Source: Amoebidium appalachense | Lineage: Eukaryota > Protista > Ichthyosporea | DNA: 64,000 nt | Direction of reading: 5' to 3' | Assembly: GCA_963693365.1 (NCBI GenBank) | Contig: CAVNZM010000003.1 | Location: 13,421,252 to 13,485,251, forward strand | Shown: positions 20,621-55,228 of the stretch, piece by piece | How the letters are laid out: the number at the start of each line of letters is the position of its first letter | Numbering within the stretch: position 1 is the stretch's first letter | Notes under the pieces: model-generated | What the model saw: the letters and a program-made list of their open reading frames with translations, nothing else | What the model was told of the DNA's origin: nothing | The model's database searches: none | Program-made: the position numbers and the translations under genes

Positions 20621-22323
20621 ATATATCATGCGGCATGTGTTAGTTTCGCGTTATTGGTTTCCTAGCACGAGATATTCAGCACACAGTTGGGGTTGTGGGG
20701 GCAGTGTACACCTACAATATCAGGGGTACCGCGCGGCAAAAACACCCCCCCCCCCCCCCCCCCCGGGGGGAGGGGGTCACGCGTGCGATGGTGCACTTAT
20801 TATTACGTTAACTAGGCAGGGTATAGCATCAACGTTATTATATGTGCTGCTGAGTTTCTTTGGTTGTACACCCGTCACCAGTCAATTTATTGGTGTTGGC
20901 GCCCACCTGTGACACCACCTCGGAAGACTGGGGTCACATGTGTGGTGCACACGGTGGGTAAATATCATCAAACTGTAGCTGCAAAAGAATGTGCAATTAT
21001 GCATCACTGTCTGGTATTTGCCTATCCCCCCCCCCCCCCCCCCCCCCCCGCCCCCCCCCCCCCCCCCACACCGGGCCCTCCCCCCCCTCCCCCCCCCACC
21101 CCCCCCCCCACCCCAGGCCGCCTCTCCACACCACACACACACGCACCACACACACACACACTGCTGCAGAGCTACATGGATGCCTTCACCATCACGCGTG
21201 ACGATATTTAATTAGTATTGGTGATATTGTACCAATACGTAACGTATATTGGTAATAGATAGTACATAGAATATATATATCACACGAATATAAATAATAC
21301 GAGAGCCATATGGGGACCCCTTCCTGAATCGCACGCACGCGTGTATACGTCGCGTTGAAGATTGTTTACTTGTGTGCTTGATGCCACTATCAAACCGAAG
21401 TTAATAAAGTGACCATACGGAACACGTATGGATGTCGACATGTGCAATACATTGGCAATTCATTGACAATGATTATGGGGCTGTGCTTACCGTACCGTGT
21501 GCATATTGCCAATATATTGAGCATGTGATTGAGGTATTAATAAAGTTTTTATTAATACATTGGCAATGTTCGTCATACGTATTATTCTTAGATATAAGAC
21601 GTTACTCCGATATGCCTTTCATATTATAAGCGCACTTCTATGAAAAACTACTTCGGGACGTGTGTTGCCTCTAGGGGGACATCCCCTTGGACGAAAGTGA
21701 ACCTGCAATGGTTGTAAACCATGGCAAGCCCCCAGTCATCAATTTATTGATCCGTGAGGTCCATGTGCCCAAAAAACGGGGGAAGTCTTCGCCCCGTGAA
21801 AAAACAGCACGTATGTGTGGATCAATGGGGGTTGTGTGTGGGTGTAGGTGGGTGGGTGAAAAGGAATATATAGCTGTAAGGCTGTGGATGCTAAACACAG
21901 AAGATGTGTTTGTAGCTTGCTGATCTGCTAAAAACTGTCGTGCTTATATACCTAAGCCTACCGATCTGAGCCAATCAAAAATCGATCTAGTGATATGTGA
22001 AATCTGATCCGAGCCAATCATAACTCGGTCTAGTGATCTGTGGTATCTGATGTTTTGACTGGCTAATAAGTGCCCGTGTGCGGGCAGCCAACCGCTAACT
22101 GCTAAAACACGAAATGAAGCCTACATGGTTATGTTGGTATCGAACACCCATCCTACGTGTTTACCCAGAAAAATATTTATGTCAATAATTTCCACAAATA
22201 AAACCTCTATGAAAAACTACTTCGGGACGTGTGTTGCCTCTAGGGGGACATCCCCTTGGACGAAAGTGAACCTGCAATGGTTGTAAACCACGGCACGAGA
22301 GCAGTATGCTTGCTCCAAAGGTT

Positions 22324-23384
22324 TCACTTAAGAATAGAGGCGAATACACGTGTGGTGGTGGCAGCAATGGAGGCCGGACGAAGTCGGGTATAGATCAGGA
22401 AGCAGTCGGAGGACCACCGGCCGAGTTGTTTGATCCGGGAGTCGTCGACCCCGGCCTCAGCCAGTGCTGTGGCCCCCCCGATGCGGAGGCTGTGTCCGGC
22501 AAACCGGGAGGGTGAGAGGCCTGCCCGGGAGAGGAGGGCACGGAAATCGGCAGAGAAAGCACTCTTGGTGTAGGGGATGCCACCGAGACTGAAGAGGGGG
22601 TCGTCGGGTTGACCGGACGTTGTATCCAGGAACTGCCGGAGGAGATGGGCTGGGGAGAAGTGGGTGAGGGGCAGGGCAGCTAGGGTGACGTTGACACCTC
22701 GGGCCTGTACATCCGTCTTAGAGGTTGGCAGGTGGAGGGTGGCATGGGACAAAGTACCGGTGGGGGTGTAGCTGAAGGTCACGTCCTTCCGTTTAACGTG
22801 ACGGGACGGGTCGAAAGAAGTCAGGGTCTTGGAGGTAAATTCCCCTGAACGGAGGAGACCACAGAAACCGACGATGAGGGCCGTCCATAGCCGGAGATTG
22901 GCCGAGGAGGCCTTGGTGGGGCACTGGCCATGGAGTAGGCGGAGGTGGGAGGGGAGGAGGGGTTCCCTGGTGGATGAGCAGGGTCGGATGTTGTGAGAAA
23001 GCTGCCATCGGCCTACCCCCCGTAGGAACCAGGCCAGAGACTTGTCGTGGGGGTAGGGAGCAGGGAGGCCCATGTCGAGGTGGAGCCTGGTGATGGCCGA
23101 ATTGTAGCCGGTTAAGGAAGAGGCCTGTACCCCTCGTTGGGCACACCAGGCGAGAAAAAGTTGCACGGTGTGTGGGGAGGCCGGGAGGGAGGACCCGGAG
23201 GGGGATTGCAGCCGAGATGCCACACAGAAATCGATGAACACTTTTTGCACCCGGGAGTAAAAGGCCCGAGAGTCGAGGTTGAGACTCAGGGCCTGGCATT
23301 CCTGCAGGGTAGTGGTGGCTCGAAGCAGCTCGGCCGGAGCAAAGTGGGGGGCCAATCTGCCAGTGTTGCTCCGGAACGGGAGAT
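22324..23384 (-). CDS. Tyrosine recombinase of YR retrotransposon (uninterrupted frame)
   Basis: GLLRSGE (R), SKTD (K), GHSLRIGGAT (HxxR), GRWSSDCFLIY (W,Y); start placed at the predicted splice acceptor. Confidence 0.93.
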
Positions 23385-23693
23385 CTGGGGGGGGGGGGGG
23401 GGGGGGGTTAGCCCAAGGGAAGGGATAGGAACTCGTGGACCCAGGAGGGGAAGGGGCAGGGCTCCGGTTGCAGGGAAGGTCGGAGTCGTCGGGCCCGGGG
23501 AAATTTCGCAGGCCAACTACGGCGCCCGCGCGCATCAAGAATAAATGTCCCTATACAAAGACGTTTATTTTGGCCACTGCACATAATTTTACTCCCCCCC
23601 CCCCCCCATCCCACGAGCCTCCCCCCTTACACTCACCTAGCACTCCCTCCCCCCCCCCCCTTCTTCTACCGCTGTGTCCGCCCACACCCCCGC

Positions 23694-23788
23694 GTGCTCG
23701 GGCACGTTCCCCTGCACAGGGCCCCGCTGCCCTCCCTGCCAACCCTCACTTGGGCCCAGCTGCCCTACTCTAACCCCCCGGGGCCCTG

Positions 23789-23852
<64 letters not shown>

Positions 23853-25532
23853 CTGCCGGGATCTCCCCAAGGGTACACCACCCTTGCTAACCACCCCTTC
23901 CCCCGAGGCTCAGACCCGGAGGCCCGCCCGCTGCCCCAGCACCACATTGACACCTCCCGCCTCCGGGAACTGCTGGCCTCCTACCCGGACCAACCATTCG
24001 CCGCACAACTCCTCCACGATGTCGAATTCGGCGTCGACATCGGCTAGCGCGGCCCCTCCACCTCTCGGGTGGGCCCCAACCTACCCACCACCCCGGAGGC
24101 AGCTGCCGCTATCACGGTGGATATTGCCAAAGAAGTCGCCCTCGGCCACCTGCGCGGCCCCCTCTCCCCGGCCCAATTCTTTGACGAATTTCCCGTCCAC
24201 CGTTCCTCCCCCATCGGCGCCGTTACCAAGAAAGGGAACCCCCCCAAGTACCGTCGAATCCACCACCTCTCCTGGCCCCGGGGTAGCAGTGTCAATGACA
24301 GCATCACCTACCCCGACGAACTTCAGTACATTCGCGCCCGGGATGTCACCCAACTCATTCTCGACGCAGGCCCCGGCTGCTACATGGCCGTGGCAGATGT
24401 GCAGGCTGCCTTCCGGCACATGCCCATCCGACCGGAAGACCACCACTTAATGGCATTCAAATGGCAAGGGCATTTTTACGTTGAAACCAGACTGCCCTTC
24501 GGCCTGAAATCTAGCCCAGCCATCTGGGAACGGATCGCGGCCACCCTACAGTGGCTGGCACACCAGCACGGTATTACCCTATCCGCCACTACGTAGACGA
24601 CTGGATTATAGTCGTCCCCACACAACAGCAGTGCCAACGTCACCTATCCACCTTCCTGCAACTCTGCCGAGAGCTGCACATTGCCATCTCCGAAGACAAG
24701 ATGCAGGGCCCGGCTACCCATGTCGTCTTCATCGGTATCGAATTCGACTCCATCGCCATGGAGGCACGAATCCCGGCTTCCAAGCTCTCGGACCTACTCG
24801 ACCTCACTTCCCACCCAAAGCCCACCATCACCATTCGGGACCTCCAGTCCCTCCTCGGCAAACTCACCTGGTGTGCCCAGCTGGTTCCCCCCGGGAGGGC
24901 CTTCTCCCAGCGCCTATGGGCCCTTCTCCGGACCCACCCACACCTTGCCGGCCACCACCACATACGACTGACTGCTGCCGCCCGGGCCGACATAGCCGAA
25001 TGGCACCAGTTCCTCACATCATGGAATGGGGTGCACCTCATCACACCCCCCACATACACCACCCTGGCCACTGATGCTGCCGGATCGGTGGGTCTAGGTG
25101 GCCACTGGCTCGACCAATGGTTCTTCATGCCCTGGTCCCCCTCCACCCAAGCCCTCTATGCTCATGAGGGTAAACTCGGTTCTTCCGTCATCGAACTCCT
25201 GGCCATCGCAGCCGCCGTGGCCCTCTGGGCCCCCTCCTGGTCCACCCACCATGTCCGTATTTTATGCGACAACACGGGTGCTGTGGCTGACCTGCACTCC
25301 CGGTCTTCCCCCCCACCCCGTGATGGCCAAACTTATTCGGTTCATCACCCGCATGGAAATGCAATACCAATTTACGTTACAGGCATCCTACCTACCAGGA
25401 CCCCTCAACCATCTGGCCGATGCCATTTCTCGTAACCAACTTCCCCGGGCCCGACGACTCCGACCATCCCTGCAACCGGAGCCCTGCCCCTTCCCCTCCT
25501 GGGTCCATGAGTTCCTATCCCTTCCCTTGGGC

Positions 25533-25535
<3 letters not shown>
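23694..25535 (+). pseudogene. DIRS/Ngaro-type RT-RNase H
   Basis: RRIHHLSWP, DVQAAFR, LPFGLKSSP, YVDD, TDAA, ELLA, CDN, ADAISR; stop at 24045 and frameshifts near 24581 and 25316. Confidence 0.92.
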
Positions 25536-25563
<28 letters not shown>

Positions 25564-25565
25564 AG

Positions 25566-26626
25566 ATCTCCCGTTCCGGAGCAACGCTGCCAGATTGGCC
25601 CCCCACTTTGCTCCGGCCGAGCTGCTTCGAGCCACCACTACCCTGCAGGAATGCCAGGCCCTGAGTCTCAACCTCGACTCTCGGGCCTTTTACTCCCGGG
25701 TGCAAAAAGTGTTCATCGATTTCTGTGTGGCATCTCGGCTGCAATCCCCCTCCGGGTCCTCCCTCCCGGCCTCCCCTCACACCGTGTAACTTTTTCTCGC
25801 CTGGTGTGCCCAACGAGGGGTACAGGCCTCTTCCTTAACCGGCTACAATTCGGCCATCACCAGGCTCCACCTCGACATGGGCCTCCCTGCTCCCTACCCC
25901 CACGACAAGTCTCTGGCCTGGTTCCTACGGGGGGTGGGCAGATGGCAGCTTTCTCACAACATCGGACCCCGCTCATCCACCAGGGAACCCCTCCTGCCCT
26001 CCCACCTCAGCCTACTTCACGGCCAGTGCCCCACCAAGGCCTCCTCGGCCAATCTCCGGCTATGGACGGCCCTCATCGTCGGTTTCTGTGGTCTCCTCCG
26101 GTCAGGGGAATTTACCTCCAAGACCCTGACTTCTTTCGACCCGTCCCGTCACGTTAAACGGAAAGACGTGACCTTCACCTACACCCCCACCGGTACTTTG
26201 TCCCATGCCACCCTCCACCTGCCAACCTCTAAGACGGATGTACAGGCCCGAGGTGTCAACGTCACTCTAGCTGCCCTGCCCCTCACCCACTTCTCCCCAG
26301 CCCATCTCCTCCGGCAGTTCCTGGATACAACGTCCGGTCAACCCGACGACCCCCTCTTCAGTCTCGGTGGCATCCCCTACACCAAGAGTGCTTTCTCTGC
26401 CGACTTCCGTGCCCTCCTCTCCCGGGCAGGCCTCTCACCCTCCCGGTTTGCCGGACACAGCCTCCGCATCGGGGGGGCCACAGCACTGGCTGAGGCCGGG
26501 GTCGACGACTCCCGGATCAAACAACTCGGCAGGTGGTCCTCCGACTGTTTCCTGATCTATACCCGACTTCGTCCGGCCTCCATTGCTGCCACTACCACAC
26601 GTGTATTCGCCTCTATTCTTAAGTGA
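25566..26626 (+). pseudogene. Tyrosine recombinase, premature stop at 25787
   Basis: Inverted near-identical copy of 22324-23384. Confidence 0.9.
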
Positions 26627-27305
26627 AACCTTTGGAGCAAGCATACTGCTCTCGTGCCGTGGTTTACAACCATTGCAGGTTCACTTTCGTCCAAGGGGAT
26701 GTCCCCCTAGAGGCAACACACGTCCCGGAGTAGTTTTCATAGAGGTTTTATTTGTGGAAATTATTGACATAAATATTTTTCTGGGTAAATACGTAGGATG
26801 GGTGTCCGATATCTACAGGCTTCGTTTCATGTTTTAGCAGTTCGCGTTCGGCTGCCCGCATACGGGCACCTATTAGCCGATCAAAACATCAGATTCCACA
26901 GATCACTAGACCGAGTTTGATTGGCTCAGGATAAGATTTCACATAACACTAGATCGGTTTTGATTGGCTCAGTTCGGTAGCCGTAGGTATATAAGCACGA
27001 CAGTTTTTAGCAGATCAGCAAGCAACAACACATCTTCTGTGTTTAGGACCTACAGCTTTACAGCTATATTTTCTTTTTCACCCACCCACCTACACCCTAC
27101 ACTCAACCCCCATTGATCCCCACATACGTGCTGTTTTTTTTTTTCACGGGGCGAAGACTTCCCCCGTTTTTTGGGCACAAGGACCTCACGGATCAATAAA
27201 TTGATGACTGGGGGCCTGCCGTGGTTTACAACCATTGCAGGTTCACTTTCGTCCAAGGGGATGTCCCCCTAGAGGCAACACACGTCCCGGAGTAGTTTTC
27301 ATAGA

Positions 27306-27411
27306 CTAGACATTATTCGTTTTTTCAATAACTACCCACAGAACAGCTTCTAGCACGAGAACTTTACCACAAAGTTTACGGGGGGGATGGTGAATGTGCC
27401 CCTGGAGTACG
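27306..27411. repeat. Isolated partial unit of the 183-bp satellite
   Basis: CTAGACATTA...CCCCTGGAGTACG matches the 18801-20620 monomer. Confidence 0.9.
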
Positions 27412-28663
27412 ACAGCCCTATTGGCCCGTTCTCCCGAGCTCCGTTTCCCTGTACTCGTGTGTCCTAGCTCCTAACCCCTATGTTCTAGCTGTGTGTGTGG
27501 GTGTGCGCGTAGACTAGGCATTGTGCTTGCAGTCTTTGCGGGGGTGTGTGCCAGAGCAGAGCTAGATTTCAGGCCGAAGGGCAGTCTGGTTTCAACGTAA
27601 AAATGCCCCAGCCATTTGAATGCCATTAGGTGATGGTCTTCTGCCAGTGGTCGGATGGGCATGTGCCGGAAGGCAGCCTGCACATCTGCCACGGCCATGT
27701 AGCAGCCGGGGCCTGCGTCGAGAATGATCTGGGTGACGTCCCGGGCGCGAATGTACTGAAGTTCGTCGGGGTAGGTGATGCTGTCATTGACACTGCTACC
27801 CCGGGGCCAGGAGAGGTGGTGGATTCGACGGTACTTGGGGGGGTTCCCTTTCTTGGTAACAGCGCCGATGGGGGAGGAACGGTGGACCGGAAATTCGTCA
27901 AAGAATTGGGCCGGGGAGAGGGGGCCGCGCAGATGGCCGAGGGCGACCTCTTTGGCAATATCCGCCGTGATAGCGGAAGCTGCCTCCGGGGGTGGTGGGT
28001 AGGTTGGGGCCCACCCGAGAGGTGGAGGGGCCGCGATAGCCGATGTCGACACCGAATTCGACATCGTGGAGGAGTTGTGCGGCGAATGATTGGTCTGGGT
28101 AGGAGGCCAGCAGTTCCCGGAGGCGGGAGGTGTCAATGTGGTGCTGGGGCAGCGGGCGGGCCTCCGGGTCTGAGCCTCGGGGGAAGGGGGTGGTTAGCAA
28201 GGGTGGGGCACCCTCGGGGAGATCCCGGCAGCGGGGGGGGGGGGGGGGGGGGGGGGGGCAGCAGGGCCCCGGGGGGGTTAGAGTAGGGCAGCTGGGCCCG
28301 AGTGAGGGTTGGCAGGGAGGGCAGCGGGGCCCTGTGCAGGGGAATGTGCCCGAGCACGCGGGGGTGTGGGCGGACACAGAGGTAGAAGAAGGGGGGGAGG
28401 GAGTGCTAGGTGAGTGTAAGGGGGGGGGGGAGGCTCGTGGGATGGGGGGGAGTAAAGTTATGTGCAGTGGCCAGAATAAACGTCTTTGTGTAGGGACATT
28501 TATTCTTGACGCGCGCGGGCGCCGTAGTTGGCCTGCGAAAATTTTGTACTCAGCCCTATTGGCCCGTTCTCCCGAGCTCCGTTTCCCTGTACTCGTGTGT
28601 CCTAGCTCCTAACCCCTATGTTCTAGCTGTGTGACACTGTGTGGGTGTGCGCGTAGACTAGGC

Positions 28664-29222
28664 CTTGTTTTTTTATTTTATCCCGTTTCACTCCCGGCGA
28701 GGTCTTCCGCCTAGACACAGATCGTACTGTATAGCACACTCATAAGTCAGGATTCTAATTGACCCCAACTGGCACTATTTTTAGTTACGCCTTATCCCAC
28801 GGTTCTAGCCGCAGCAACGCTAGTGGGGAAATGAGCACAGCTCACTTTAACAACACCAGCCGGGAGCGACCCGGGACACATACACAAACATAAAGACTTG
28901 AAAGGGAAGACCCCATGCCCAGGACGCTGACCCGAACCGTGGCCGGTGACTCGGATTGGTCTCCCACTTGAACGTTGGGCCGGGATGCCCAAGCGGCGCG
29001 CCGTCGACGTCAGAGGGCCGGTGCTGTTCATGACGTCATGTCTTACGGCCGGGTGATAACAAATTGGTGGTGCTGCTTTGACGTGGTCTGGGGTGATGGC
29101 TTCTAGGGGGCGGCCAGACCGGTGGACCGTCGAGGCAGAAAAAAATCGGAAGTAACCAGGATCGATCCTGCGACTTTGAGCTTGACACGCAGAGATCTTA
29201 CCATTGCACCAACCCGCCCCCC
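28664..29222 (-). mobile_element. tRNA-derived SINE, second copy, inserted at the gag stop codon
   Basis: Reverse complement of 15333-15900 with short A tail; 11-bp TSD GTAGACTAGGC at 28653-28663 and 29224-29234. Confidence 0.9.
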
Positions 29223-29228
29223 TGTAGA

Positions 29229-30410
29229 CTAGGCATTGAGCTTGCAGTCTTTGCGGGGGTGTGTGCCAGAGCAGAGCGGGCACACGTGGGAGAAGGGGCA
29301 GGGCTGCTTAGCGCAGGACCGACCGTTAATGTGGAAATTCCTGCAGTGCGTCGCGGGTAGATCCACGGGTCGGGCCGGTTTGGCCGGGCCGGGTTGCGGG
29401 CCAGGGCGGTTAGGGGTTTGACCCCCGCCGGGCTTGTGGGGCGGTTTAAAGCCGTCAAGACCACAGCCGGGCTTGGGGTACATGGGGCAGGCCGCGCTGG
29501 GGTGGTCGGGGAAGCCACAGCGCTGACATGCGTCCGGGATGAGCAGAGTGGGTGGCAGGAGGAGATCCTGGTGGAGTTGGGCGAGCAGGTTGGGACACTC
29601 GATCGGGGCCCGACCCTGCTGGTGGGCAACGGTTCGGGCGTATACGTCATAGTTGTGGATCTGGGCCCACGGGTATCGGGTGCTGAGGCGAGTGATGTGC
29701 TGAGTCCAAAGTACGTCTTTGTCCGTGGGGAGGCCGAGGTGGTGCTTGGCGGCCATGTAATGGGTCCAAGCTTGGATCCAAATGACGAGTGAACGCAGGG
29801 GAACGGGTTTGTCTTGGCGAAAAGTCTCGATGCTGCCGTCGTCGGCCATGCGCAGATGCTGACCTTTCTTGGATGGGGCCAGGAGGGCGGCGGGGGTGAA
29901 CTTATACAGGTCGACGAAACGATTGGCGCGCAAATCTGCCAGCACATCCGCGGGGGGAAGTGGGGAGTGTGCCCGGCTGAATGTCGCCAGTGTTCTCACC
30001 TGTGATGGGGGGCGCGGGCAGGGCAGGTAGGTCTAGGTCAGGGCCGAGATGCAGCCCCGGGGAAACCTCCCCGGGTGCGGAGGGCGCGGCGGGGGGCGCG
30101 GGAGGGTCGCGGTTGGTGAGAGCAGCCAGGACGTGACGCCAGCCATCTGGGTGCTGATGGCGGTGAGGGCGGCAAGGACGGCGTCTTGAGAAGTCATCTG
30201 CGGGGACGGCGGGGCCTGAGGGGGGATTTCAGGAGGGGAGGGGAGACTAGCCGGCGGGTCCGGGTCCGTGGTGGTATGGGCCGCTGGAGGCGCGTCAGTG
30301 TCCGCGGGAGCGTTGGTCAGCCTGTGCCAGTGGCGGAGGTCGCTGCGGGTCAGGCGCTTGGGTGCCGCGGCAGGGGCGGTGGCTGAGGCCTGGCGCTTTT
30401 TCGGCGGCAT
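29229..30410 (-). pseudogene. YR retrotransposon gag (frameshifted)
   Basis: MPPKKRQ start; C-terminal CQRCGFPDH and CRNFH...CPFSHVCPLC...H zinc fingers. Confidence 0.88.
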
Positions 30411-30781
30411 GCTGACCGGCGGACGGAAAGATAGGGAGAGTGAATGAAAAAGAAAATATAGCTGTAAAGCTGTAGGTGCTAAACACAGAAGATGTGTTGT
30501 TGCTTGCTGATCTGCTAAAAACTGTCGTGCTTATATACCTACGGCTACCGAACTGAGCCAATCAAAACCGATCTAGTGTTATGTGAAATCTTATCCTGAG
30601 CCAATCAAACTCGGTCTAGTGATCTGTGGAATCTGATGTTTTGATCGGCTAATAGGTGCCCGTATGCGGGCAGCCGAACGCGAACTGCTAAAACATGAAA
30701 CGAAGCCTGTAGATATCGGACACCCATCCTACGTATTTACCCAGAAAAATATTTATGTCAATAATTTCCACAAATAAAACC

Positions 30782-32840
30782 TATACTGTACTTTGCATGC
30801 ATTCGTTCCCATTATCAATTTATTGGCAATGTATTTGGATAATATAGTGTGATATTTATAATATATATGTAATGCATTATCAACACTTATATCTTTATGG
30901 TGGTGGTATCATTCGTATGTTGGCAATATATCTTGATATGGAACATACTTACATACTTCTTATTTGTAATGTGTTGGGAGTGTATTAATCATACCTCTGT
31001 TTATGTCATCAATATACTCACGATATATAAGCAACCTATCGGCGATACCGCATTTATATATTGATTATAGTTGGATATATGTTGGCAATACATTGTTTAT
31101 ATGTTTCTTGATATTTAAATCTTAGTATTTCTATGAATTACATATTGGCAATACATTAATAATGCGTTCATAGTGCAACTACAATGCGAAAATACAGTAT
31201 TATCCATATCATTATCTGTATTTTTGATATTATTTGGTTGTTATTGTAATATCGCCCGGGTATAATTGATATTGGCAATACGTCTATAATGCTAGCGCAA
31301 TAGTAATGCATTGGCAATGTAATGGCACTCTAATGTATTGGCGATATTGATGTAACATATACTAGATAATATATTCATATCATCGGGATATCGACAATAG
31401 AGGGTATTGGTACTGTATTACCATTGACAATACCAAAGCAATATTATTGCAATATGGCGTTCCTATTGGCGGCAAGGGGTTCTATTGCCAATATCGCCAA
31501 TAGCGCCAATAGCAAAAAATACGTTGGCAATACTTCCGGGAAGTTTGCTGATGTCGGCATGTATTGGATATTAGACAGATGCCCACAATGGATATCGACG
31601 CTGGATATCCAATGATGGAATTTCAACTGCATTCCTCCGTTGGATAGCTATATGGATATGTAACATTCTGGATATCCATTTGGATGCTTAGCTGTATATT
31701 AGACTGGATCAGTAACAACATATCCAATACATGACTGACATGGATATCCGATCAATATCCCCATACAGATATCAAGATATCCCTGTAGCAAGACATGCAA
31801 TACACCTAACAAGTATATCCAATGGCGGTCTATAGTGGATGTCCATATTGGATATCCATTGATATATCCAGATGGATCGCTAATACATGTGCACTTGACC
31901 CCAACGCTAATGAACAATGCATGCCCATATTGGATACGTTCAATGGATATCCATTCCGATATCCAGATACATACGCATTTGCTTGTCCACTAGACCCTCC
32001 TATAATAACCAAAGCATGACGATTCCACATATCCAATTAGATCACCAAATATGGCTCTGACGGTTATCCATATACACCCGCACGCTGATGTCCAATAGAC
32101 AATCATACTAAGACACAATGGATAGCTATACTGGTTATCTAGGCTCAACATCCATACAGATATCTTGATACACCTGCATTTGCCCATCCACTAGACCCTA
32201 ATACTAATATCCAATGCATGACGAAAATACATATCACAATAGACCCCCATACCGATCTCCAACGGCTATCCATATGCACCCCTGCTTACCCATCCAATAT
32301 ATGTCGATATTCATATACAATGCATCACCATTCACAATATCTAAGCTTAATATCCAACATGATATGCGGATACATATACACGTACATATGCACTCGGCAC
32401 CTATGTTGATACCTAATGCATGAAAAACAAACATATCAAAGTAGATGCCCAACCTAATGCCTAACACTTAACAAACATACATGTTTTGGGATATCCATTT
32501 ACACCCGTATCTAATACTCAAAATATCACTATAACAGCTATTGGTTGATACCCATACAGATAGCCAGATACATCTGTAGCTACATGTCTAGGGTATATCC
32601 ACTGGATTAATTGCATAATTTTGGTACTGTATATCTGCAGCATATCTATTAGGTGTATTTGATATGTAATAAGGCATTTCAGGATAAACATTACACATCT
32701 TTACCGATCCATCGCATGACCATATGATGGCTAATGACCACCATTGATAAATAAATTATGTCTGTCTTATATCTATCACATAAGTAATACTTATCCACGG
32801 CACAAAGTTACACAACCACGTTATACTCGGTTCCACAAAT
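30782..32840. repeat. AT-rich segment with dispersed ATTGCCAATA / GGATATCC motifs (transposon subterminal-like)
   Basis: Same motif families as 12957-14600, 21200-21636, 55110-55228 and 60359-60916. Confidence 0.55.
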
Positions 32841-33389: not shown

Positions 33390-34098
33390 CTGAGAAAGCA
33401 GAAAGCAACAGTCTATGAAAAACTACTTCGGGACGTGTGTTGCCTCTAGGGGGACATCCCCTTGGACGAAAGTGAACCTGCAATGGTTGTAAACCACGGC
33501 AAGCCCCCAGTCATCAATTTATTGATCCGTGAGGTCCATGTGCCCAAAAAACGGGGGAAGTCTTCGCCCCGTGAAAAAACAGCACGTATGTGTGGATCAA
33601 TGGGGGTTGTGTGTGGGTGTAGGTGGGTGGGTGAAAAGGAATATATAGCTGTAAGGCTGTGGATGCTAAACACAGAAGATGTGTTTGTAGCTTGCTGATC
33701 TGCTAAAAACTGTCGTGCTTATATACCTAAGCCTACCGATCTGAGCCAATCAAAAATCGATCTAGTGATATGTGAAATCTGATCCGAGCCAATCATAACT
33801 CGGTCTAGTGATCTGTGGTATCTGATGTTTTGACTGGCTAATAAGTGCCCGTGTGCGGGCAGCCAACCGCTAACTGCTAAAACACGAAATGAAGCCTACA
33901 TGGTTATGTTGGTATCGAACACCCATCCTACGTGTTTACCCAGAAAAATATTTATGTCAATAATTTCCACAAATAAAACCTCTATGAAAAACTACTTCGG
34001 GACGTGTGTTGCCTCTAGGGGGACATCCCCTTGGACGAAAGTGAACCTGCAATGGTTGTAAACCACGGCACGAGAGCAGTATGCTTGCTCCAAAGGTT

Positions 34099-35158
34099 TC
34101 ACTTAAGAATAGAGGCGAATACACGTGTGGTGGTGGCAGCAATGGAGGCCGGACGAAGTCGGGTATAGATCAGGAAGCAGTCGGAGGACCACCGGCCGAG
34201 TTGTTTGATCCGGGAGTCGTCGACCCCGGCCTCAGCCAGTGCTGTGGCCCCCCCGATGCGGAGGCTGTGTCCGGCAAACCGGGAGGGTGAGAGGCCTGCC
34301 CGGGAGAGGAGGGCACGGAAATCGGCAGAGAAAGCACTCTGGTGTAGGGGATGCCACCGAGACTGAAGAGGGGGTCGTCGGGTTGACCGGACGTTGTATC
34401 CAGGAACTGCCGGAGGAGATGGGCTGGGGAGAAGTGGGTGAGGGGCAGGGCAGCTAGGGTGACGTTGACACCTCGGGCCTGTACATCCGTCTTAGAGGTT
34501 GGCAGGTGGAGGGTGGCATGGGACAAAGTACCGGTGGGGGTGTAGCTGAAGGTCACGTCCTTCCGTTTAACGTGACGGGACGGGTCGAAAGAAGTCAGGG
34601 TCTTGGAGGTAAATTCCCCTGAACGGAGGAGACCACAGAAACCGACGATGAGGGCCGTCCATAGCCGGAGATTGGCCGAGGAGGCCTTGGTGGGGCACTG
34701 GCCATGGAGTAGGCGGAGGTGGGAGGGGAGGAGGGGTTCCCTGGTGGATGAGCGGGGTCGGATGTTGTGAGAAAGCTGCCATCGGCCTACCCCCCGTAGG
34801 AACCAGGCCAGAGACTTGTCGTGGGGGTAGGGAGCAGGGAGGCCCATGTCGAGGTGGAGCTTGGTGATGGCCGAATTGTAGCCGGTTAAGGAAGAGGCCT
34901 GTACCCCTCGTTGGGCACACCAGGCGAGAAAAAGTTGCACGGTGTGTGGGGAGGCCGGGAGGGAGGACCCGGAGGAGGATTGCAGCCGAGATGCCACACA
35001 GAAATCGATGAACACTTTTTGCACCCGGAAGTAAAAGGCCCGAGAGTCGAGGTTGAGACTCAGGGCCTGGCATTCCTGCAGGGTAGTGGTGGCTCGAAGC
35101 AGCTCGGCCGGAGCAAAGTGGGGGGCCAATCTGCCAGTGTTGCTCCGGAACGGGAGAT
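34099..35158 (-). pseudogene. Tyrosine recombinase (1-bp deletion near 34340)
   Basis: Same protein as 22324-23384; CACTCTGG instead of CACTCTTGG. Confidence 0.88.
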
Positions 35159-35183
35159 CTGGGGGGGGGGGGGGGGGGGGGGG

Positions 35184-36866
35184 TTAGCCCAAGGGAAGGG
35201 ATAGGAACTCGTGGACCCAGGAGGGGAAAGGGCAGGGCTCCGGTTGCAGGGAAGGTCGGAGTCGTCGGGCCCGGGGAAGTTGGTTACGAGAAATGGCATC
35301 GGCCAGATGGTTGAGGGGTCCTGGTAGGTAGGATGCCTGTAACGTAAATTGGTATTGCATTTCCATGCGGGTGATGAACCGAATAAGTTTGGCCATCACG
35401 GGGTGGGGGGAAGACCGGGAGTGCAGGTCAGCCACAGCACCCGTGTTGTCGCATAAAATACGGACATGGTGGGTGGACCAGGAGGGGGCCCAGAGGGCCA
35501 CGGCGGCTGCGATGGCCAGGAGTTCGATGACGGAAGAACCGAGTTTACCCTCATGAGCATAGAGGGCTTGGGTGGAGGGGGACCAGGGCATGAAGAACCA
35601 TTGGTCGAGCCAGTGGCCACCTAGACCCACCGATCCGGCAGCATCAGTGGCCAGGGTGGTGTATGTGGGGGGTGTGATGAGGTGCACCCCATTCCATGAT
35701 GTGAGGAACTGGTGCCATTCGGCTATGTCGGCCCGGGCGGCAGCAGTCAGTCGTATGTGGTGGTGGCCGGCAAGGTGTGGGTGGGTCCGGAGAAGGGCCC
35801 ATAGGCGCTGGGAGAAGGCCCTCCCGGGGGGAACCAGCTGGGCACACCAGGTGAGTTTGCCGAGGAGGGACTGGAGGTCCCGAATGGTGATGATGGGCTT
35901 TGGGTGGGAAGTGAGGTCGAGTAGGTCCGAGAGCTTGGAAGCCGGGATTCGTGCCTCCATGGCGATGGAGTCGAATTCGATACCGATGAAGACGACACGG
36001 GTAGCCGGGCCCTGCATCTTGTCTTCGGAGATGGCAATGTGCAGCTCTCGGCAGAGTTGCAGGAAGGTGGATAGGTGACGTTGGCACTGCTGTTGTGTGG
36101 GGGCGACTATAATCCAGTCGTCTACGTAGTGGCGGATGAGGGTAATACCGTGCTGGTGTGCCAGCCACTGTAGGGTGGCCGCGATCCGTTCCCAGATGGC
36201 TGGGCTAGATTTCAGGCCGAAGGGCAGTCTGGTTTCAACGTAAAAATGCCCTTGCCATTTGAATGCCATTAAGTGGTGGTCTTCCGGTCGGATGGGCATG
36301 TGCCGGAAGGCAGCCTGCACATCTGCCACGGCCATGTAGCAGCCGGGGCCTGCGTCGAGAATGAGTTGGGTGACATCCCGGGCGCGAATGTACTGAAGTT
36401 CGTCGGGGTAGGTGATGCTGTCATTGACACTGCTACCCCGGGGCCAGGAGAGGTGGTGGATTCGACGGTACTTGGGGGGGTTCCCTTTCTTGGTAACGGC
36501 GCCGATGGGGGAGGAACGGTGGACGGGAAATTCGTCAAAGAATTGGGCCGGGGAGAGGGGGCCGCGCAGGTGGCCGAGGGCGACTTCTTTGGCAATATCC
36601 ACCGTGATAGCGGCAGCTGCCTCCGGGGTGGTGGGTAGGTTGGGGCCCACCCGAGAGGTGGAGGGGCCGCGATAGCCGATGTCGATGCCGAATTCGACAT
36701 CGTGGAGGAGTTGTGCGGCGAATGGTTGGTCCGGGTAGGAGGCCAGCAGTTCCCGGAGGCGGGAGGTGTCAATGTGGTGCTGGGGCAGCGGGCGGGCCTC
36801 CGGGTCTGAGCCTCGGGGGAAGGGGTGGTTAGCAAGGGTGGTGTACCCTTGGGGAGATCCCGGCAG

Positions 36867-36867
<1 letters not shown>
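35184..36867 (-). CDS. RT-RNase H of YR retrotransposon
   Basis: Open frame with YVDD and RNase H D-E-D-D motifs; true 5' end uncertain (poly-C, no upstream ATG). Confidence 0.92.
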
Positions 36868-36914
<47 letters not shown>

Positions 36915-37305
36915 CAGGGCCCCGGGGGGTTAGAGTAGGGCAGCTGGGCCCAAGTGAGGGTTGGCAGGGAGGGCAGCGGGGCCCTGTGCAGGGGAATGTG
37001 CCCGAGCACGCGGGGGTGTGGGCGGACACAGCGGTAGAAGAAGGGGGGGGGGAGGGAGTGCTAGGTGAGTGTAAGGGGGGGAGGCTCGTGGGATGGGGGG
37101 GGGGGAGTAAAATTATGTGCAGTGGCCAGAATAAACGTCTTTGTATAGGGACATTTATTCTTGATGCGCGCGGGCGCCGTAGTTGGCCTGCGAAATTTTG
37201 TACTCAGCCCTATTGGCCCGTTCTCCCGAGCTCCGTTTCCCTGTACTCGTGTGTCCTAGCTCCTAACCCCTATGTTCTAGCTGTGTGTGTGGGTGTGCGC
37301 GTAGA

Positions 37306-38475
37306 CTAGGCATTGTGCTTGCAGTCTTTGCGGGGGTGTGTGCCAGAGCAGAGCGGGCACACGTGGGAGAAGGGGCAGGGCTGCTTAGCGCAGGACCGAC
37401 CGTTAATGTGGAAATTCCTGCAGTGCGTCGCGGGTAGATCCACGGGTCGGGCCGGTTTTGCCGGGCCGGGTTGCGGGCCAGGGCGGTTAGGGGTGTGACC
37501 CCCGCCGGGCTTGTGGGGCGGCTTAAAGCCGTCAAGACCACAGCCGGGCTTGGGGTACATGGGGCAGGCCGCGCTGGGGTGGTCGGGGAAGCCACAGCGC
37601 TGACATGCGTCCTGGATGAGCAGAGTGGGTGGCAGGAGGAGATCCTGGTGGAGTTGGGCGAGCAGGTTGGGGCACTCGATCGGAGCCCGACCCTGCTGGT
37701 GGGCCACGGTGCGGGCGTATACGTCATAGTTGTGGATCTGGGCCCACGGGTATCGGGTGCTGAGGCGAGTGATGTGCTGAGTCCAAAGTACGTCTTTGTC
37801 CGTGGGAAGGCCGAGGTGGTGCTTGGCGGCCATGTAATGGGTCCAAGCTTGGATCCAAATGACGAGTGAACGCAGGGGAACGGGTTTGTCTTGGCGAAAA
37901 GTCTCGATGCTGCCGTCGTCGGCCATGCGCAGATGCTGACCTTTCTTGGATGGGGCCAGGAGGGCGGCGGGGGTGAACTTATACAGGTCGACGAAACGAT
38001 TGGCGCGCAAATCTGCCAGCACATCCGCGGGGGGAAGCGGGAGTGTGCCCGGCTGAATGTCGCCAGTGTTCTCACCTGTGATGGGGGGCGCGGGCAGGGC
38101 AGGCAGGTCAAGGTCAGGGCCGAGATGCAGCCCCGGGGAAACCTCCCCGGGTGTGGAGGGCGCGGCGGGGGGCGCGGGAGGGTCGCGGTTGGTGAGAGCA
38201 GCCAGGACGCCAGCCATCTGGGTGCTGATGGCGCTGAGGGCGGCCAGGACGGCGTCTTGAGAAGTCATCTGCGGGGACGGCGGGGCCTGAGGGGGGACTT
38301 CAGGAGTGGAGGGGAGAGTAGCCGGCGGGTCCGGGTCCGTGGTGGTATGGGCCGCTGGAGGCGCGTCAGTGTCCGCGGGAGCGTTGGTCAGCCTGTGGCG
38401 GAAGTCGCTGCGGGTCAGGCGCTTAGGTGCCGCGGCAGGGGCGGCGGCTGAGGCCTGGCGCTTTTTCGGCGGCAT
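37306..38475 (-). CDS. Gag-like ORF1 with C-terminal zinc fingers
   Basis: ATG MPPKKRQ; CCHC/CCCH-like fingers; conserved in 4 copies. Confidence 0.9.
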   Translation of the reverse strand: MPPKKRQASAAAPAAAPKRLTRSDFRHRLTNAPADTDAPPAAHTTTDPDPPATLPSTPEVPPQAPPSPQMTSQDAVLAALSAISTQMAGVLAALTNRDPPAPPAAPSTPGEVSPGLHLGPDLDLPALPAPPITGENTGDIQPGTLPLPPADVLADLRANRFVDLYKFTPAALLAPSKKGQHLRMADDGSIETFRQDKPVPLRSLVIWIQAWTHYMAAKHHLGLPTDKDVLWTQHITRLSTRYPWAQIHNYDVYARTVAHQQGRAPIECPNLLAQLHQDLLLPPTLLIQDACQRCGFPDHPSAACPMYPKPGCGLDGFKPPHKPGGGHTPNRPGPQPGPAKPARPVDLPATHCRNFHINGRSCAKQPCPFSHVCPLCSGTHPRKDCKHNA

Positions 38476-38939
38476 GCTGACCGGCGTAGGGAAAGATAGG
38501 GAGAATGAAAAGGAAATTGAAAAGGAATATATAGCTGTAAGGCTGTGGATGCTAAACACAGAAGATGTGTTTGTAGCTTGCTGATCTGCTAAAAACTGTC
38601 GTGCTTATATACCTAAGCCTACCGATCTGAGCCAATCAAAAATCGATCTAGTGATATGTGAAATCTGATCCGAGCCAATCATAACTCGGTCTAGTGATCT
38701 GTGGTATCTGATGTTTTGACTGGCTAATAAGTGCCCGTGTGCGGGCAGCCAACCGCTAACTGCTAAAACACGAAATGAAGCCTACATGGTTATGTTGGTA
38801 TCGAACACCCATCCTACGTGTTTACCCAGAAAAATATTTATGTCAATAATTTCCACAAATAAAACCAACGTGTGCGAGAATGTGGGACCTATACACACAG
38901 TACATACACACAACGCCTGAGGGGACTAAAAAGGATTCA

Positions 38940-40410: not shown

Positions 40411-40413
40411 TAC

Positions 40414-43554: not shown

Positions 43555-45630
<2,076 letters not shown>

Positions 45631-46994
45631 CCCCCCCCCCGTGTGCACAGATATCATGATATATGTATTTAAATTATATGTATATTCATATATATAAATA
45701 TATATAAATATACTATATATATATATTTATATATATTTATATATCTATATTCTATAATATAAATATATTACAACTTTGATATAGTATGTAAAACGCATGG
45801 AGGGATTATCGGCTTGACTCAGCATCGGATTCGAACCACCATGCTTGTCCTGCTGTGTGATTGGTGTTTTGTAACCTGATTAATGATAATCAGATTGAAC
45901 CGATTTTTGTTCGGCTGTGTGATTGGTATTCATTAGTCACATTATGGATAATCCGATTATGCTCCTGTTTCTTGATTGGTCTTCTCCAATCATTAATGAT
46001 TGTCCGTTATGACTGTTTCTTTCCCACCCTTCGGAGGTCAGTTTCTATGAAAACTACTCCGGGACGTGTGTTGCCTCTAGGGGGACATCCCCTTGGACGA
46101 AAGTGAACCTGCAATGGTTGTAAACCACGGCAAGCCCCCAGTCATCAATTTATTGATCCGTGAGGTCCATGTGCCCAAAAAACGGGGGAAGTCTTCGCCC
46201 CGTGAAAAAACAGCACGTATGTGTGGATCAATGGGGGTTGTGTGTGGGTGTAGGTGGGTGGGTGAAAAAGGAATATATAGCTGTAAGGCTGTGGATGCTA
46301 AACACAGAATCTATGAAAACTACTCCGGGACGTGTGTTGCCTCTAGGGGGACATCCCCTTGGACGAAAGTGAACCTGCAATGGTTGTAAACCACGGCAAG
46401 CCCCCAGTCATCAATTTATTGATCCGTGAGGTCCATGTGCCCAAAAAACGGGGGAAGTCTTCGCCCCGTGAAAAAACAGCACGTATGTGTGGATCAATGG
46501 GGGTTGTGTGTGGGTGTAGGTGGGTGGGTGAAAAGGAATATATAGCTGTAAGGCTGTGGATGCTAAACACAGAAGATGTGTTTGTAGCTTGCTGATCTGC
46601 TTAAAACTGTCGTGCTTATATACCTAAGCCTACCGATCTGAGCCAATCAAAAATCGATCTAGTGATATGTGAAATCTGATCCGAGCCAATCATAACTCGG
46701 TCTAGTGATCTGTGGTATCTGATGTTTTGACTGGCTAATAGGTGCCCGTGTGCGGGCAGCCAACCGCTAACTGCTAAAACACGAAATGAAGCCTACATGG
46801 TTATGTTGGTATCGAACACCCATCCTACGTGTTTACCCAGAAAAATATTTATGTCAATAATTTCCACAAATAAAACCTCTATGAAAACTACTCCGGGACG
46901 TGTGTTGCCTCTAGGGGGACATCCCCTTGGACGAAAGTGAACCTGCAATGGTTGTAAACCACGGCACGAGAGCAGTATGCTTGCTCCAAAGGTT

Positions 46995-48057
46995 TCACTT
47001 AAGAATAGAGGCGAATACACGTGTGGTGGTGGCAGCAATGGAGGCCGGACGAAGTCGGGTATAGATCAGGAAGCAGTCGGAGGACCACCGGCCGAGTTGT
47101 TTGATCCGGGAGTCGTCGACCCCGGCCTCAGCCAGTGCTGTGGCCCCCCCGATGCGGAGGCTGTGTCCGGCAAACCGGGAGGGTGGGAGGCCTGCCCGGG
47201 AGAGGAGGGCACGGAAATCGGCAGAGAAAGCACTCTTGGTGTAGGGGATGCCACCGAGACTGAAGAGGGGGTCGTCGGGTTGACCGGACGTTGTATCCAG
47301 GAACTGCCGGAGGAGATGGGCTGGGGAGAAGTGGGTGAGGGGCAGGGAAGCTAGGGTGTGACGTTGACACCTCGGGCCTGTACATCCGTCTTAGAGGTTG
47401 GCAGGTGGAGGGTGGCATGGGACAAAGTACCGGTGGGGGTGTAGCTGAAGGTCACGTCCTTCCGTTTAACGTGACGGGACGGGTCGAAAGAAGTCAGGGT
47501 CTTGGAGGTAAATTCCCCTGAACGGAGGAGACCACAGAAACCGACGATGAGGGCCGTCCATAGCCGGAGATTGGCCGAGGAGGCCTTGGTGGGGCACTGG
47601 CCATGGAGTAGGCGGAGGTGGGAGGGGAGGAGGGGTTCCCTGGTGGATGAGCGGGGTCGGATGTTGTGAGAAAGCTGCCATCGGCCTACCCCCCGTAGGA
47701 ACCAGGCCAGAGACTTGTCGTGGGGGTAGGGAGCAGGGAGGCCCATGTCGAGGTGGAGCCTGGTGATGGCCGAATTGTAGCCGGTTAAGGAAGAGGCCTG
47801 TACCCCTCGTTGGGCACACCAGGCGAGAAAAAGTTGCACGGTGTGTGGGGAGGCCGGGAGGGAGGACCCGGAGGAGGATTGCAGCCGAGATGCCACACAG
47901 AAATCGATGAACACTTTTTGCACCCAGGAGTAAAAGGCCCGAGAGTCGAGGTTGAGACTCAGGGCCTGGCATTCCTGCAGGGTAGTGGTGGCTCGAAGCA
48001 GCTCGGCCGGAGCAAAGTGGGGGGCCAATCTGCCAGTGTTGCTCCGGAACGGGAGAT
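46995..48057 (-). pseudogene. Tyrosine recombinase (2-bp insertion near 47358)
   Basis: Same protein as other copies; frame break after GVNVT. Confidence 0.88.
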
Positions 48058-48085
48058 CTGGGGGGGGGGGGGGGGGGGGGGGGGG

Positions 48086-49768
48086 TTAGCCCAAGGGAAG
48101 GGATAGGAACTCGTGGACCCAGGAGGGGAAGGGGCAGGGCTCCGGTTGCAGGGAAGGTCGGAGTCGTCGGGCCCGGGGAAGTTGGTTACGAGAAATGGCA
48201 TCGGCCAGATGGTTGAGGGGTCCTGGTAGGTAGGATGCCTGTAACGTAAATTGGTATTGCATTTCCATGCGGGTGATGAACCGAATAAGTTTGGCCATCA
48301 CGGGGTGGGGGGAAGACCGGGAGTGCAGGTCAGACACAGCACCCGTGTTGTCGCATAAAATACGGACATGGTGGGTGGACCAGGAGGGGGCCCAGAGGGC
48401 CACGGCGGCTGCGATGGCCAGGAGTTCGATGACGGAAGAACCGAGTTTACCCTCATGAGCATAGAGGGCTTGGGTGGAGGGGGACCAGGGCATGAAGAAC
48501 CATTGGTCGAGCCAGTGGCCACCTAGACCCACCGATCCGGCAGCATCAGTGGCCAGGGTGGTGTATGTGGGGGGTGTGATGAGGTGCACCCCATTCCATG
48601 ATGTGAGGAACTGGTGCCATTCGGCTATGTCGGCCCGGGCGGCAGCAGTCAGTCGTATGTGGTGGTGGCCGGCAAGGTGTGGGTGGGTCCGGAGAAGGGC
48701 CCATAGGCGCTGGGAGAAGGCCCTCCCGGGGGGAACCAGCTGGGCACACCAGGTGAGTTTGCCGAGGAGGGACTGGAGGTCCCGAATGGTGATGGTGGGC
48801 TTTGGGTGGGAAGTGAGGTCGAGTAGGTCCGAGAGCTTGGAAGCCGGGATTCGTGCCTCCATGGCGATGGAGTCGAATTCGATACCGATGAAGACGACAC
48901 GGGTAGCCGGGCCCTGCATCTTGTCTTCGGAGATGGCAATGTGCAGCTCTCGGCAGAGTTGCAGGAAGGTGGATAGGTGACGTTGGCACTGCTCTTGTGT
49001 GGGGGCGACTATAATCCAGTCGTCTACGTAGTGGCGGATGAGGGTAATACCGTGCTGGTGTGCCAGCCACTGTAGGGTGGCCGCGATCCGTTCCCAGATG
49101 GCTGGGCTAGATTTCAGGCCGAAGGGCAGTCTGGTTTCAACGTAAAAATGCCCTTGCCATTTGAATGCCATTAAGTGGTGGTCTTCCGGTCGGATGGGCA
49201 TGTGCCGGAAGGCAGCCTGCACATCTGCAACGGCCATGTAGCAGCCGGGGCCTGCGTCGAGAATGAGTTGGGTGACATCCCGGGCGCGAATGTACTGAAG
49301 TTCGTCGGGGTAGGTGATGCTGTCATTGACACTGCTACCCCGGGGCCAGGAGAGGTGGTGGATTCGACGGTACTTGGGGGGGTTCCCTTTCTTGGTAACG
49401 GCGCCGATGGGGGAGGAACGGTGGACGGGAAATTCGTCAAAGAATTGGGCCGGGGAGAGGGGGCCGCGCAGGTGGCCGAGGGCGACTTCTTTGGCAATAT
49501 CCACCGTGATAGCGGCAGCTGCCTCCGGGGTGGTGGGTAGGTTGGGGCCCACCCGAGAGTTGGAGGGGCCGCGATAGCCGATGTCGACGCCGAATTCGAC
49601 ATCGTGGAGAAGTTGTGCGGCGAATGGTTGGTCCGGGTAGGAGGCCAGCAGTTCCCGGAGGCGGGAGGTGTCAATGTGGTGCTGGGGCAGCGGGCGGGCC
49701 ACCGGGTCTGAGCCTCGGGGGAAGGGGTGGTTAGCAAGGGTGGTGTGCCCTTGGGGAGATCCCGGCAG

Positions 49769-49823
<55 letters not shown>

Positions 49824-49918
49824 CAGGGCCCCGGGGGGTTAGAGTAGGGCAGCTGGGCCCAAGTGAGGGTTGGCAGGGAGGGCAGCGGGGCCCTGTGCAG
49901 GGGAATGTGCCCGAGCAC
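48086..49918 (-). CDS. RT-RNase H of YR retrotransposon
   Basis: 610-aa open frame with YVDD and RNase H motifs; non-ATG start in the ORF track. Confidence 0.93.
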
Positions 49919-50217
49919 GCGGGGGTTTGGGCGGACACAGCGGTAGAAGAAGGGGGGGGGGGGAGGGAGTGCTAGGTGAGTGTAAGGGGGGGGGGAGGCT
50001 CGTGGGATTGGGGGGGGAGTAAAATTATGTGCAGTGGCCAGAATAAACGTCTTTGTGTAGGGACATTTATTCGTGACGCGCGCGGGCGCCGTAGTTGGCC
50101 TGCGAAATTTTGTACTCAGCCCTATTGGCCCGTTCTCCCGAGCTCCGTTTCCCTGTACTCGTGTGTCCTAGCTCCTAACCCCTATGTTCTAGCTGTGTGT
50201 GTGGGTGTGCGCGTAGA

Positions 50218-51390
50218 CTAGGCATTGTGCTTGCAGTCTTTGCGGGGGTGTGTGCCAGAGCAGAGCGGGCACACGTGGGAGAAGGGGCAGGGCTGCTTAG
50301 CGCAGGACCGACCGTTAATGTGGAAATTCCTGCAGTGCGTCGCGGGTAGATCCACGGGTCGGGCCGGTTTTGCCGGGCCGGGTTGCGGGCCAGGGCGGTT
50401 CGGGGTGTGACCCCCGCCGGGCTTGTGGGGCGGCTTAAAGCCGTCAAGACCACAGCCGGGCTTGGGGTACATGGGGCAGGCCGCGCTGGGGTGGTCGGGG
50501 AAGCCACAGTGCTGACATGCGTCCGGGATGAGCAGAGTGGGTGGCAGGAGGAGATCCTGGTGGAGCTGGGCGAGCAGGTTGGGGCACTCGATCGGAGCCC
50601 GACCCTGCTGGTGGGCAACGGTGCGGGCGTATACGTCATAGTTGTGGATCTGGGCCCACGGGTATCGGGTGCTGAGGCGAGTGATGTGCTGAGTCCAAAG
50701 TACGTCTTTGTCCGTGGGAAGGCCGAGGTGGTGCTTGGCGGCCATGTAATGGGTCCAAGCTTGGATCCAAATGACGAGTGAACGCAGGGGAACGGGTTTG
50801 TCTTGGCGAAAAGTCTCGATGCTGCCGTCGTCGGCCATGCGCAGATGCTGACCTTTCTTGGATGGGGCCAGGAGGGCGGCGGGGGTGAACTTATACAGAT
50901 CGACGAAACGATTGGCGCGCAAATCTGCCAGCACATCCGCGGGGGGAAGCGGGAGTGTGCCCGGCTGAATGTCGCCAGTGTTCTCACCTGTGATGATGGG
51001 GGGCGCGGGCAGGGCAGGTAGGTCTAGGTCAGGGCCGAGATGCAGCCCCGGGGAAACCTCCCCGGGTGTGGAGGGCGCGGCGGGGGGCGCGGGAGGGTCA
51101 CGGTTGGTGAGAGCAGCCAGGACGCCAGCCATCTGGGTGCTGATGGCGGTGAGGGCGGCCAGGACGGCGTCTTGAGAAGTCATCTGCGGGGACGGCGGGG
51201 CCTGAGGGGGGACTTCAGGAGCGGAGGGGAGAGTAGCCGGCGGGTCCGGGTCCGTGGTGGTATGGGCCGCTGGAGGCGCGTCAGTGTCCGCGGGAGCGTT
51301 GGTCAGCCTGTGGCGGAGGTCGCTGCGGGTCAGGCGCTTAGGTGCCGCGGCAGGGGCGGCGGCTGAGGCCTGGCGCTTTTTCGGCGGCAT
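50218..51390 (-). CDS. Gag-like ORF1
   Basis: MPPKKRQ...CKHNA, intact. Confidence 0.9.
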   Translation of the reverse strand: MPPKKRQASAAAPAAAPKRLTRSDLRHRLTNAPADTDAPPAAHTTTDPDPPATLPSAPEVPPQAPPSPQMTSQDAVLAALTAISTQMAGVLAALTNRDPPAPPAAPSTPGEVSPGLHLGPDLDLPALPAPPIITGENTGDIQPGTLPLPPADVLADLRANRFVDLYKFTPAALLAPSKKGQHLRMADDGSIETFRQDKPVPLRSLVIWIQAWTHYMAAKHHLGLPTDKDVLWTQHITRLSTRYPWAQIHNYDVYARTVAHQQGRAPIECPNLLAQLHQDLLLPPTLLIPDACQHCGFPDHPSAACPMYPKPGCGLDGFKPPHKPGGGHTPNRPGPQPGPAKPARPVDLPATHCRNFHINGRSCAKQPCPFSHVCPLCSGTHPRKDCKHNA

Positions 51391-55042: not shown

Positions 55043-55228
55043 GGGGAACCGGGGGGGGGGGGGGGGGGGGGGGGGGTGGGGAACCGGGGGGAGGGGGGGG
55101 GGAGGTGAATAGATAGAGAGATATCCATATGGACATCATTTCTATATTCAGATACCTATATAGGTATATATAGAAGTGGTATACAATCAATATCATTTCT
55201 AATATAGAATACATATTCAGCTAATAAA

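Follow-up and report, generated by a model that had tools for sequence, protein, structure and literature searches.

The Ngaro-type element and its copies

The window, by which we mean the whole stretch of 64,000 nt analysed here (Amoebidium appalachense, GCA_963693365.1, contig CAVNZM010000003.1, positions 13,421,252-13,485,251, forward strand), contains a retrotransposon encoding Gag, a reverse transcriptase with RNase H (RT/RH) and a tyrosine recombinase (YR), together with one more near-full copy and several partial ones (Table 1). The three ORFs lie on one strand in the order gag, RT/RH, YR, and direct repeats are split as A1...B1-A2-B2, with the internal repeats 3' of YR. The RT/RH ORF ends 33 aa past the ADAISR motif without any Pfam match to a methyltransferase, and the catalytic residues R, H-x-x-R, W and Y are all found in the YR of the copy at 22327-23385. 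This structure matches the definition of Ngaro in the available text of PMC3783388 and PMC4157794, and by structure the element is an ordinary Ngaro. It shares with the Ngaro superfamily of the order DIRS, as portrayed in the accessible parts of five papers (PMC3783388, PMC4157794, PMC8547959, PMC9210276, PMC3266345), the gag-RT/RH-YR order, the absence of a methyltransferase and the A1-B1-A2-B2 repeats, but differs in that its ORFs do not overlap and that a 130-bp spacer separates A2 from B2. DIRS1-like elements have inverted terminal repeats with an ICR and a methyltransferase domain, whereas only direct split repeats and no methyltransferase were found here; of the PAT-like features, the split direct repeats are present but the methyltransferase domain is absent.

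The intact YR copy matches Pfam Phage_integrase (E 4e-8), and R179, H298, R301, W324 and Y332 are invariant in the YR alignment. YR is 27-42% identical to its relatives and 54% identical to P0001, with which the window family grouped (100) on a long branch in a quick YR tree containing no named reference elements. The C-terminal part of gag matches ORF1 of the relatives by tblastn, while the window gag as such has neither a Pfam match nor a SAP/HeH-type domain. In the copy studied, the YR frame is broken near 34339, 5' of the catalytic His/Arg/Tyr. This break is absent from the copy at 22324-23385 and from most sequencing-run contigs covering the site; either the studied copy is dead or the assembly is wrong there.

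Two of the partial copies stand head to head at 23501-23505, forming an inverted arrangement (21637-27307), and free pieces made of B2, spacer and partial A, resembling solo repeats, occur at 60917-61200 and 46044-46309. In five sequencing runs of one sample, a variant skips about 775 nt of gag (37558-38333) with loss of the donor; its ends are not GT-AG.

Table 1. Features of the studied element, from 5' to 3', and of its other copies in the window
Feature	Position	Strand	Remarks
Whole element	38866-33412	minus	5.45 kb
Repeat A1, 349 bp	38518..38866	-	100% identical to A2
TATA-like box in A1	38611-38604	-	TATATAAG
gag ORF, 389 aa	37306..38475	-	basic N-terminus (8 K/R in first 30 aa), Cys/His-rich C-terminus
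Predicted shared leader exon, coding part	38076..38475	-	133 codons + 1 nt
Predicted splice donor, phase 1	38070..38078	-	CAG/GTGAGA, first intron base 38075
Non-coding gag-RT spacer, 376 nt	36930..37305	-	AATAAA at 37159-37154
RT acceptor zone	36806..36933	-	CTAAC at 36933 and 36832, C44 run
Candidate RT acceptors, phase 1	36848 (AAG/), 36812 (GAG/), 36806 (CAG/, preferred)	-	downstream of C run, each behind a CTAAC
RT/RNase H coding region	35184..36805	-	Pfam RVT_1 E 2e-18; no methyltransferase domain
Predicted YR acceptor, phase 1	35159..35189	-	branch point CTAAC over RT stop, C23 tract, AG; last intron base 35159
Tyrosine recombinase region	34099..35158	-	frame break near 34339 in studied copy
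Repeat B1, 90 bp	33981..34070	-	B copies 100% identical
Repeat A2, 349 bp	33632..33980	-	A copies 100% identical
Spacer A2-B2, 130 bp	33502..33631	-	AATAAA at 33523-33518
Repeat B2, 90 bp	33412..33501	-	
Second near-full copy, 98.9%	46310..51609	-	donor 50987, YR acceptor 48058, YR broken near 47351
3' copy, intact YR	21637..23505	-	acceptor 23385
Inverted partial copy (RT, YR)	23501..27307	+	acceptor 25565
Two degenerate fragments (RT start; A1 + gag)	27551..30785	-	donor 29999
5' copy, A1 + intact gag	55225..57168	+	donor 55995

Splice signals in the element and its relatives

Neither enzyme frame offers an early start codon. The first in-frame ATG of YR is located at 34847, about 104 codons past the acceptor and after 82 codons of the recombinase core, and that of RT only at 36335, 137 codons past the conserved RT start, so that initiation at these ATGs would lose large parts of both enzymes. 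A previous sequence-only reading of this DNA had noted both deficits and proposed that a Gag leader is spliced onto YR; its coordinates for the donor, the YR acceptor and the intron were all reproduced here. The donor follows gag codon 133 plus one nucleotide, at 38076/38075 in the studied copy and at 55995 in the plus copy, and its sequence is the same in all four gag copies. Its joining to the YR acceptor (38075-35159) removes 2917 nt and keeps the frame with YR. When sites were scored with simple home-made weights, this donor ranked first of the 204 GT sites in the element (score 6.5, compared to 2.9 for the next one), and 35159 ranked first of the 224 AG sites. YR is preceded by GGCTAA-(C)n-AG in all four YR-bearing copies, with the branch-point A inside the RT stop codon. 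At the acceptors 35159, 48058, 23385 and 25565 the C run measures 23, 26, 21 and 28 nt respectively; these lengths, which may be assembly errors, cover all three residues modulo 3. Of the four CTAAC on the sense strand of the element, three stand directly before RT or YR, the two ATG-less ORFs.

The same reading had one donor serving Gag, Gag-RT and Gag-YR. This plan is supported, but the acceptor named for RT, at 36984, has to be discarded, since of four testable copies only a degenerate one has it in the RT frame, and the copy studied does not. It is replaced by 36806 (or 36812 or 36848), each of which gives with the 38075 donor an open Gag-RT/RH frame of 673-687 aa; the CAG site at 36806 is kept in 4/4 copies and the AAG site at 36848 is altered in one of the four. 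In four of five copies, each of the three frames meets a stop codon within the 50 nt that follow gag, and the fifth copy is truncated there; consequently, neither readthrough nor a single frameshift joins gag to RT. The AATAAA at 37154-37159, 150 nt past the gag stop and inside the predicted intron, is one of only two on the sense strand of the element.

Contigs from seven of nine sequencing runs, none of them recorded as RNA, contain no joint at the donor or the acceptor, which neither supports nor refutes splicing. Those of X1, a run taken for RNA by guess only, span the donor unspliced and leave 35013-35424, including the YR acceptor, without cover. The RT region is covered less deeply than gag and YR in X1, a single run whose contig depth cannot rank the parts of the element, and one X1 contig, from this run only, ends at 37152, just past the AATAAA. 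Two joints were considered as splices and rejected: the joint 46587-50116 in X5 has GT..AG ends, but 15 other letters between its sides point to a rearrangement, and the joint 34012-38589 has the appearance of a repeat variant that has diverged.

Conservation of these signals was assessed on the best 79 of the 551 loci that 16 of the 64 parts of a metagenome scan yielded, 39 of the 79 belonging to one assembly. Twelve loci without a YR start or 150 nt upstream of it were left out; the 67 kept formed with the window 40 families at 70% identity, and removal of two families without an adjoining RT end left 38. The best pyrimidine-rich YAG within the 150 nt before YR is in phase 1 in 35 of these 38 families, the window included, compared to 65 of 271 control windows in RT, and the acceptor is thus conserved in related families, as the sequence-only reading had called for. 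A pyrimidine score of at least 12 was reached by 79% of the families before YR and by 17% of the controls. Because YR overlaps RT in the -1 frame in 35/38 families, any Gln CAG codon of the RT frame is in phase 1, which confounds the count of acceptor phases. In the 35 families with a -1 overlap, we therefore kept the RT protein fixed and redrew its codons from the usage of each element itself: phase-1 acceptors were expected in 20.0 ± 2.7 families and observed in 32/35 (0/1000 redraws), and strong acceptors were expected in 9.3 ± 2.3 and observed in 25 (0/1000). A cruder, protein-anchored comparison, of how often the first Gln after DxLSR is encoded by CAG, gave no significant difference (27/36 versus 63%, p 0.10). 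The families share ancestry, hence these counts are not independent and the p-values overstate independence.

The donor is conserved as well. In the 12 families with a gag of at least 300 aa and a Cys/His end, the best gag donor is always in phase 1 (12/12; null 7.1 ± 1.6, 1/500); with partial gags included, phase-1 donors were found in 16/24 versus 8/35. Before RT, the best acceptor is in phase 1 in 20/26 families (122/271 in coding controls, p 0.001). The match between donor and acceptor phases is conserved beyond protein constraint, as spliced subgenomic expression calls for. Only the window family, 1 of 38, has its acceptor past the RT stop, outside RT, 127 nt past the RNase H motif, and the old Gln position reads CAA; there, no Gln codon of RT imposes the phase. 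The window family lost the RT/YR overlap and kept a phase-1 acceptor, which makes it an informative outlier, and the retention of the acceptor although RT and YR no longer overlap is what is new here. An exactly spliced copy was found neither in the 79 loci nor in the window, five deletions lying elsewhere than at the predicted sites, and none of ten pattern matches in viral contigs was a relative. Two loci depart from the common organisation. L073 (355-5783) is a distant YR element in which gag and RT form one frame split by a single stop, as for readthrough, and whose only CTAAC precedes a phase-1 CAG, followed by a YR without an ATG; L031 (731-6077), of a different YR lineage, has a 1749-codon ORF and a YR frame with its own ATG, and is likely an exception.

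Public protein models were compared with these predictions, bearing in mind that they are themselves predictions built with the same splice signals. YR proteins of at least 420 aa numbered 134, of which 111 had the YR start preceded by at least 100 aa. The N-terminus is other than RT in 61 of these 111 (22 match the gag frames of relatives, 39 match neither) and is RT/RH in the other 50, joins which indicate that such models contain errors too. The N-terminal part of many models from molluscs, corals and fish ends at a Gag motif, which coincides with a G/GT donor in L054, L015, L008 and L076. The acceptor predicted on L011 is exactly where the YR part of two Mytilus RefSeq models (P0302, P0354) begins, and three ENA proteins (P0352/P0458/P0460) agree with both sites predicted on L076. 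In P0372, from a Logan contig of 1615 nt, a basic start like that of the window gag runs into YR. A SAP, HeH or thymopoietin-type match was found at the N-terminus of 11 of 43 Gag-YR-type proteins scanned, two of them above the cut-off.

Proposed expression of the two enzymes

That YR receives a Gag leader by splicing is supported by the ranks of the sites in the element, by their conservation beyond protein constraint in 35-38 families and by public models whose parts join at the predicted sites. On this basis, we propose that one promoter in A1 would drive an RNA which, when unspliced, would serve both as genome and as Gag message. Spliced to the 35159 acceptor, the 38075 donor would give a Gag-YR protein, some 490 aa long if the copy is intact; spliced to the 36806 acceptor, it would give a Gag-RT/RH protein of 673 aa. 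Both enzymes are predicted to carry Gag residues 1-133 through splicing, which we consider likely for Gag-YR and somewhat less so for the exact RT acceptor. More speculatively, the leader might provide, besides the start codon, a basic stretch resembling a nuclear import signal, and might let the enzymes co-assemble with Gag, with possible roles in packaging and targeting; in animal relatives, it may often bear a SAP/HeH-type domain. The AATAAA at 37159 may end a Gag-only RNA.

A quite different origin of YR would be an RT/RH-YR fusion produced where RT ends, by -1 ribosomal frameshifting or by readthrough of the stop, with the splice-like motifs as by-products. The prevalence of the -1 overlap, the 50 public proteins joining RT/RH to YR and, in the window, a -1 frame open from 35283 to the C run with a C CCT TTC heptamer at 35232 of the studied copy would fit frameshifting, and two copies have YR in the RT frame behind a stop, as readthrough would need. 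The available text of PMC3783388 describes the YR ORF of Ngaro as in frame or frameshifted. However, the heptamer is found in one of the four window copies, and a -1 slippery heptamer in the RT-YR overlap of 0/35 families, compared to 1.2 expected; the length of the C run fits the -1 route in one copy of four and readthrough in two. Such a fusion would moreover leave RT itself without a start, given the stops in all frames past gag, and it explains neither the donor nor the recoding results. We regard it as improbable. An alternative of similarly low probability accepts the acceptors as real but pairs them with another donor, in a non-coding or shorter 5' exon, or has RT and YR begin at a non-AUG codon or by re-initiation on subgenomic RNAs. 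It finds a precedent in foamy virus, whose Pol is made from a spliced RNA without Gag fusion according to the accessible part of PMC7828637, and an in-frame ATG lies before or within 12 codons of the YR core in 17/38 families, besides the ATG that L031 has of its own. In the window family, however, no ATG occurs for more than 100 codons past either acceptor, the only strong donor of the element is the phase-matched one, and the public models carry the front half of Gag. That the motifs arose by chance in a C-rich, slippage-prone genome and that these copies make no YR, as the 46 C runs of at least 12 in the window and the broken frame of two of the four YR copies examined could suggest, is very improbable, since only four of the 46 runs have CTAAC before and AG right after them, all before YR, since the 100% identity of the A repeats marks the copies as young and implies recent activity, and since the splice signals are conserved in relatives.

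Splicing of a shared Gag leader onto both enzymes would have partial counterparts in other elements. In the Copia elements EVD, BARE1 and Drosophila copia, the spliced RNA yields Gag and the unspliced one Gag-Pol, as reported in the available text of PMC5580714. Splicing would likewise set the amounts of Gag and enzymes from one promoter in the window element, but here the spliced RNAs would make the enzymes, fused to a Gag leader. Foamy virus pol and retroviral env are also downstream ORFs expressed from spliced subgenomic RNA and not by frameshift (PMC7828637, in part); in contrast to foamy Pol, which is separate and has no Gag part, RT and YR of the window element would share a coding Gag exon. 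No account of a spliced Gag-YR or Gag-RT was found in the portions covered of the YR-retrotransposon literature (PMC7192593, PMC4157794, PMC8547959, PMC6681497, PMC9210276, PMC3266345, PMC9341512, PMC4495291, PMC5718144, PMC3783388), nor does the string 'splic' occur in the available text of PMC3783388, PMC8547959, PMC9210276 and PMC3266345. How Ngaro elements make RT and YR from start-less ORFs finds no answer in these same portions. If the splice plan is true, it would give the true N-terminus of the integrating enzyme, which is needed for rebuilding an active Ngaro or assaying its recombinase, and would account for many Gag-YR gene models labelled 'uncharacterized' in the genomes of molluscs, corals and fish. 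Spliceosomal introns were reportedly described in some YR retrotransposons by Goodwin and Poulter (2004) in their Ngaro paper, where an earlier mention is possible.

For Ngaro elements as a group, we lean towards an expression resembling that of complex retroviruses, in which one Gag-leader exon would be spliced to separate RT/RH and YR exons, intronic polyadenylation would give a Gag-only RNA, and the leader would bring nuclear import, packaging and target choice to YR. The -1 overlap would then be a matter of compaction and not a frameshift site, as the non-overlapping window family shows. ORF1 influences the target choice of Ngaro elements in Cafeteria, according to the available text of PMC8547959; a Gag front end that is part of the recombinase could be the mechanism of this effect.

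Other sequences of the window

The sequence-only reading had also pointed to Plavaka exons using poly-C-CAG acceptors. Acceptor-like sites of this kind are indeed present, but the Plavaka label could not be confirmed, the pieces concerned (68 aa and 103 aa) having no Pfam match. The 68-codon exon-like piece occurs in two inverted copies, at 45114-45318 and 40413-40618, and is bounded by a poly-C-GGCAG acceptor and a CAG/GTATGT donor followed by (TG)n; a TACTAAC-poly-C-CAG site lies at 54615. Several other features were also observed. A Copia-type LTR element with 708-bp repeats (99.7% identical) and matches to Pol_BBD and RVT_2 is located at 263-5858, and a DNA polymerase B of the protein-primed type is encoded in two frames at 6526-12253 (DNA_pol_B_2, E 2e-25 and 2e-12), preceded by a 929-codon ORF, which gives this region a Polinton- or virus-like appearance. 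A match to the poxvirus-type late transcription factor VLTF3 (E 5e-10) was found at 59752-60357, among unexplained ORFs at 58114-63436. ORFs at 51865-53679 resemble a kinase and a phosphatase by eye, with no Pfam match, and tandem repeats, each of about 183 bp, extend from 18772 to 20660.
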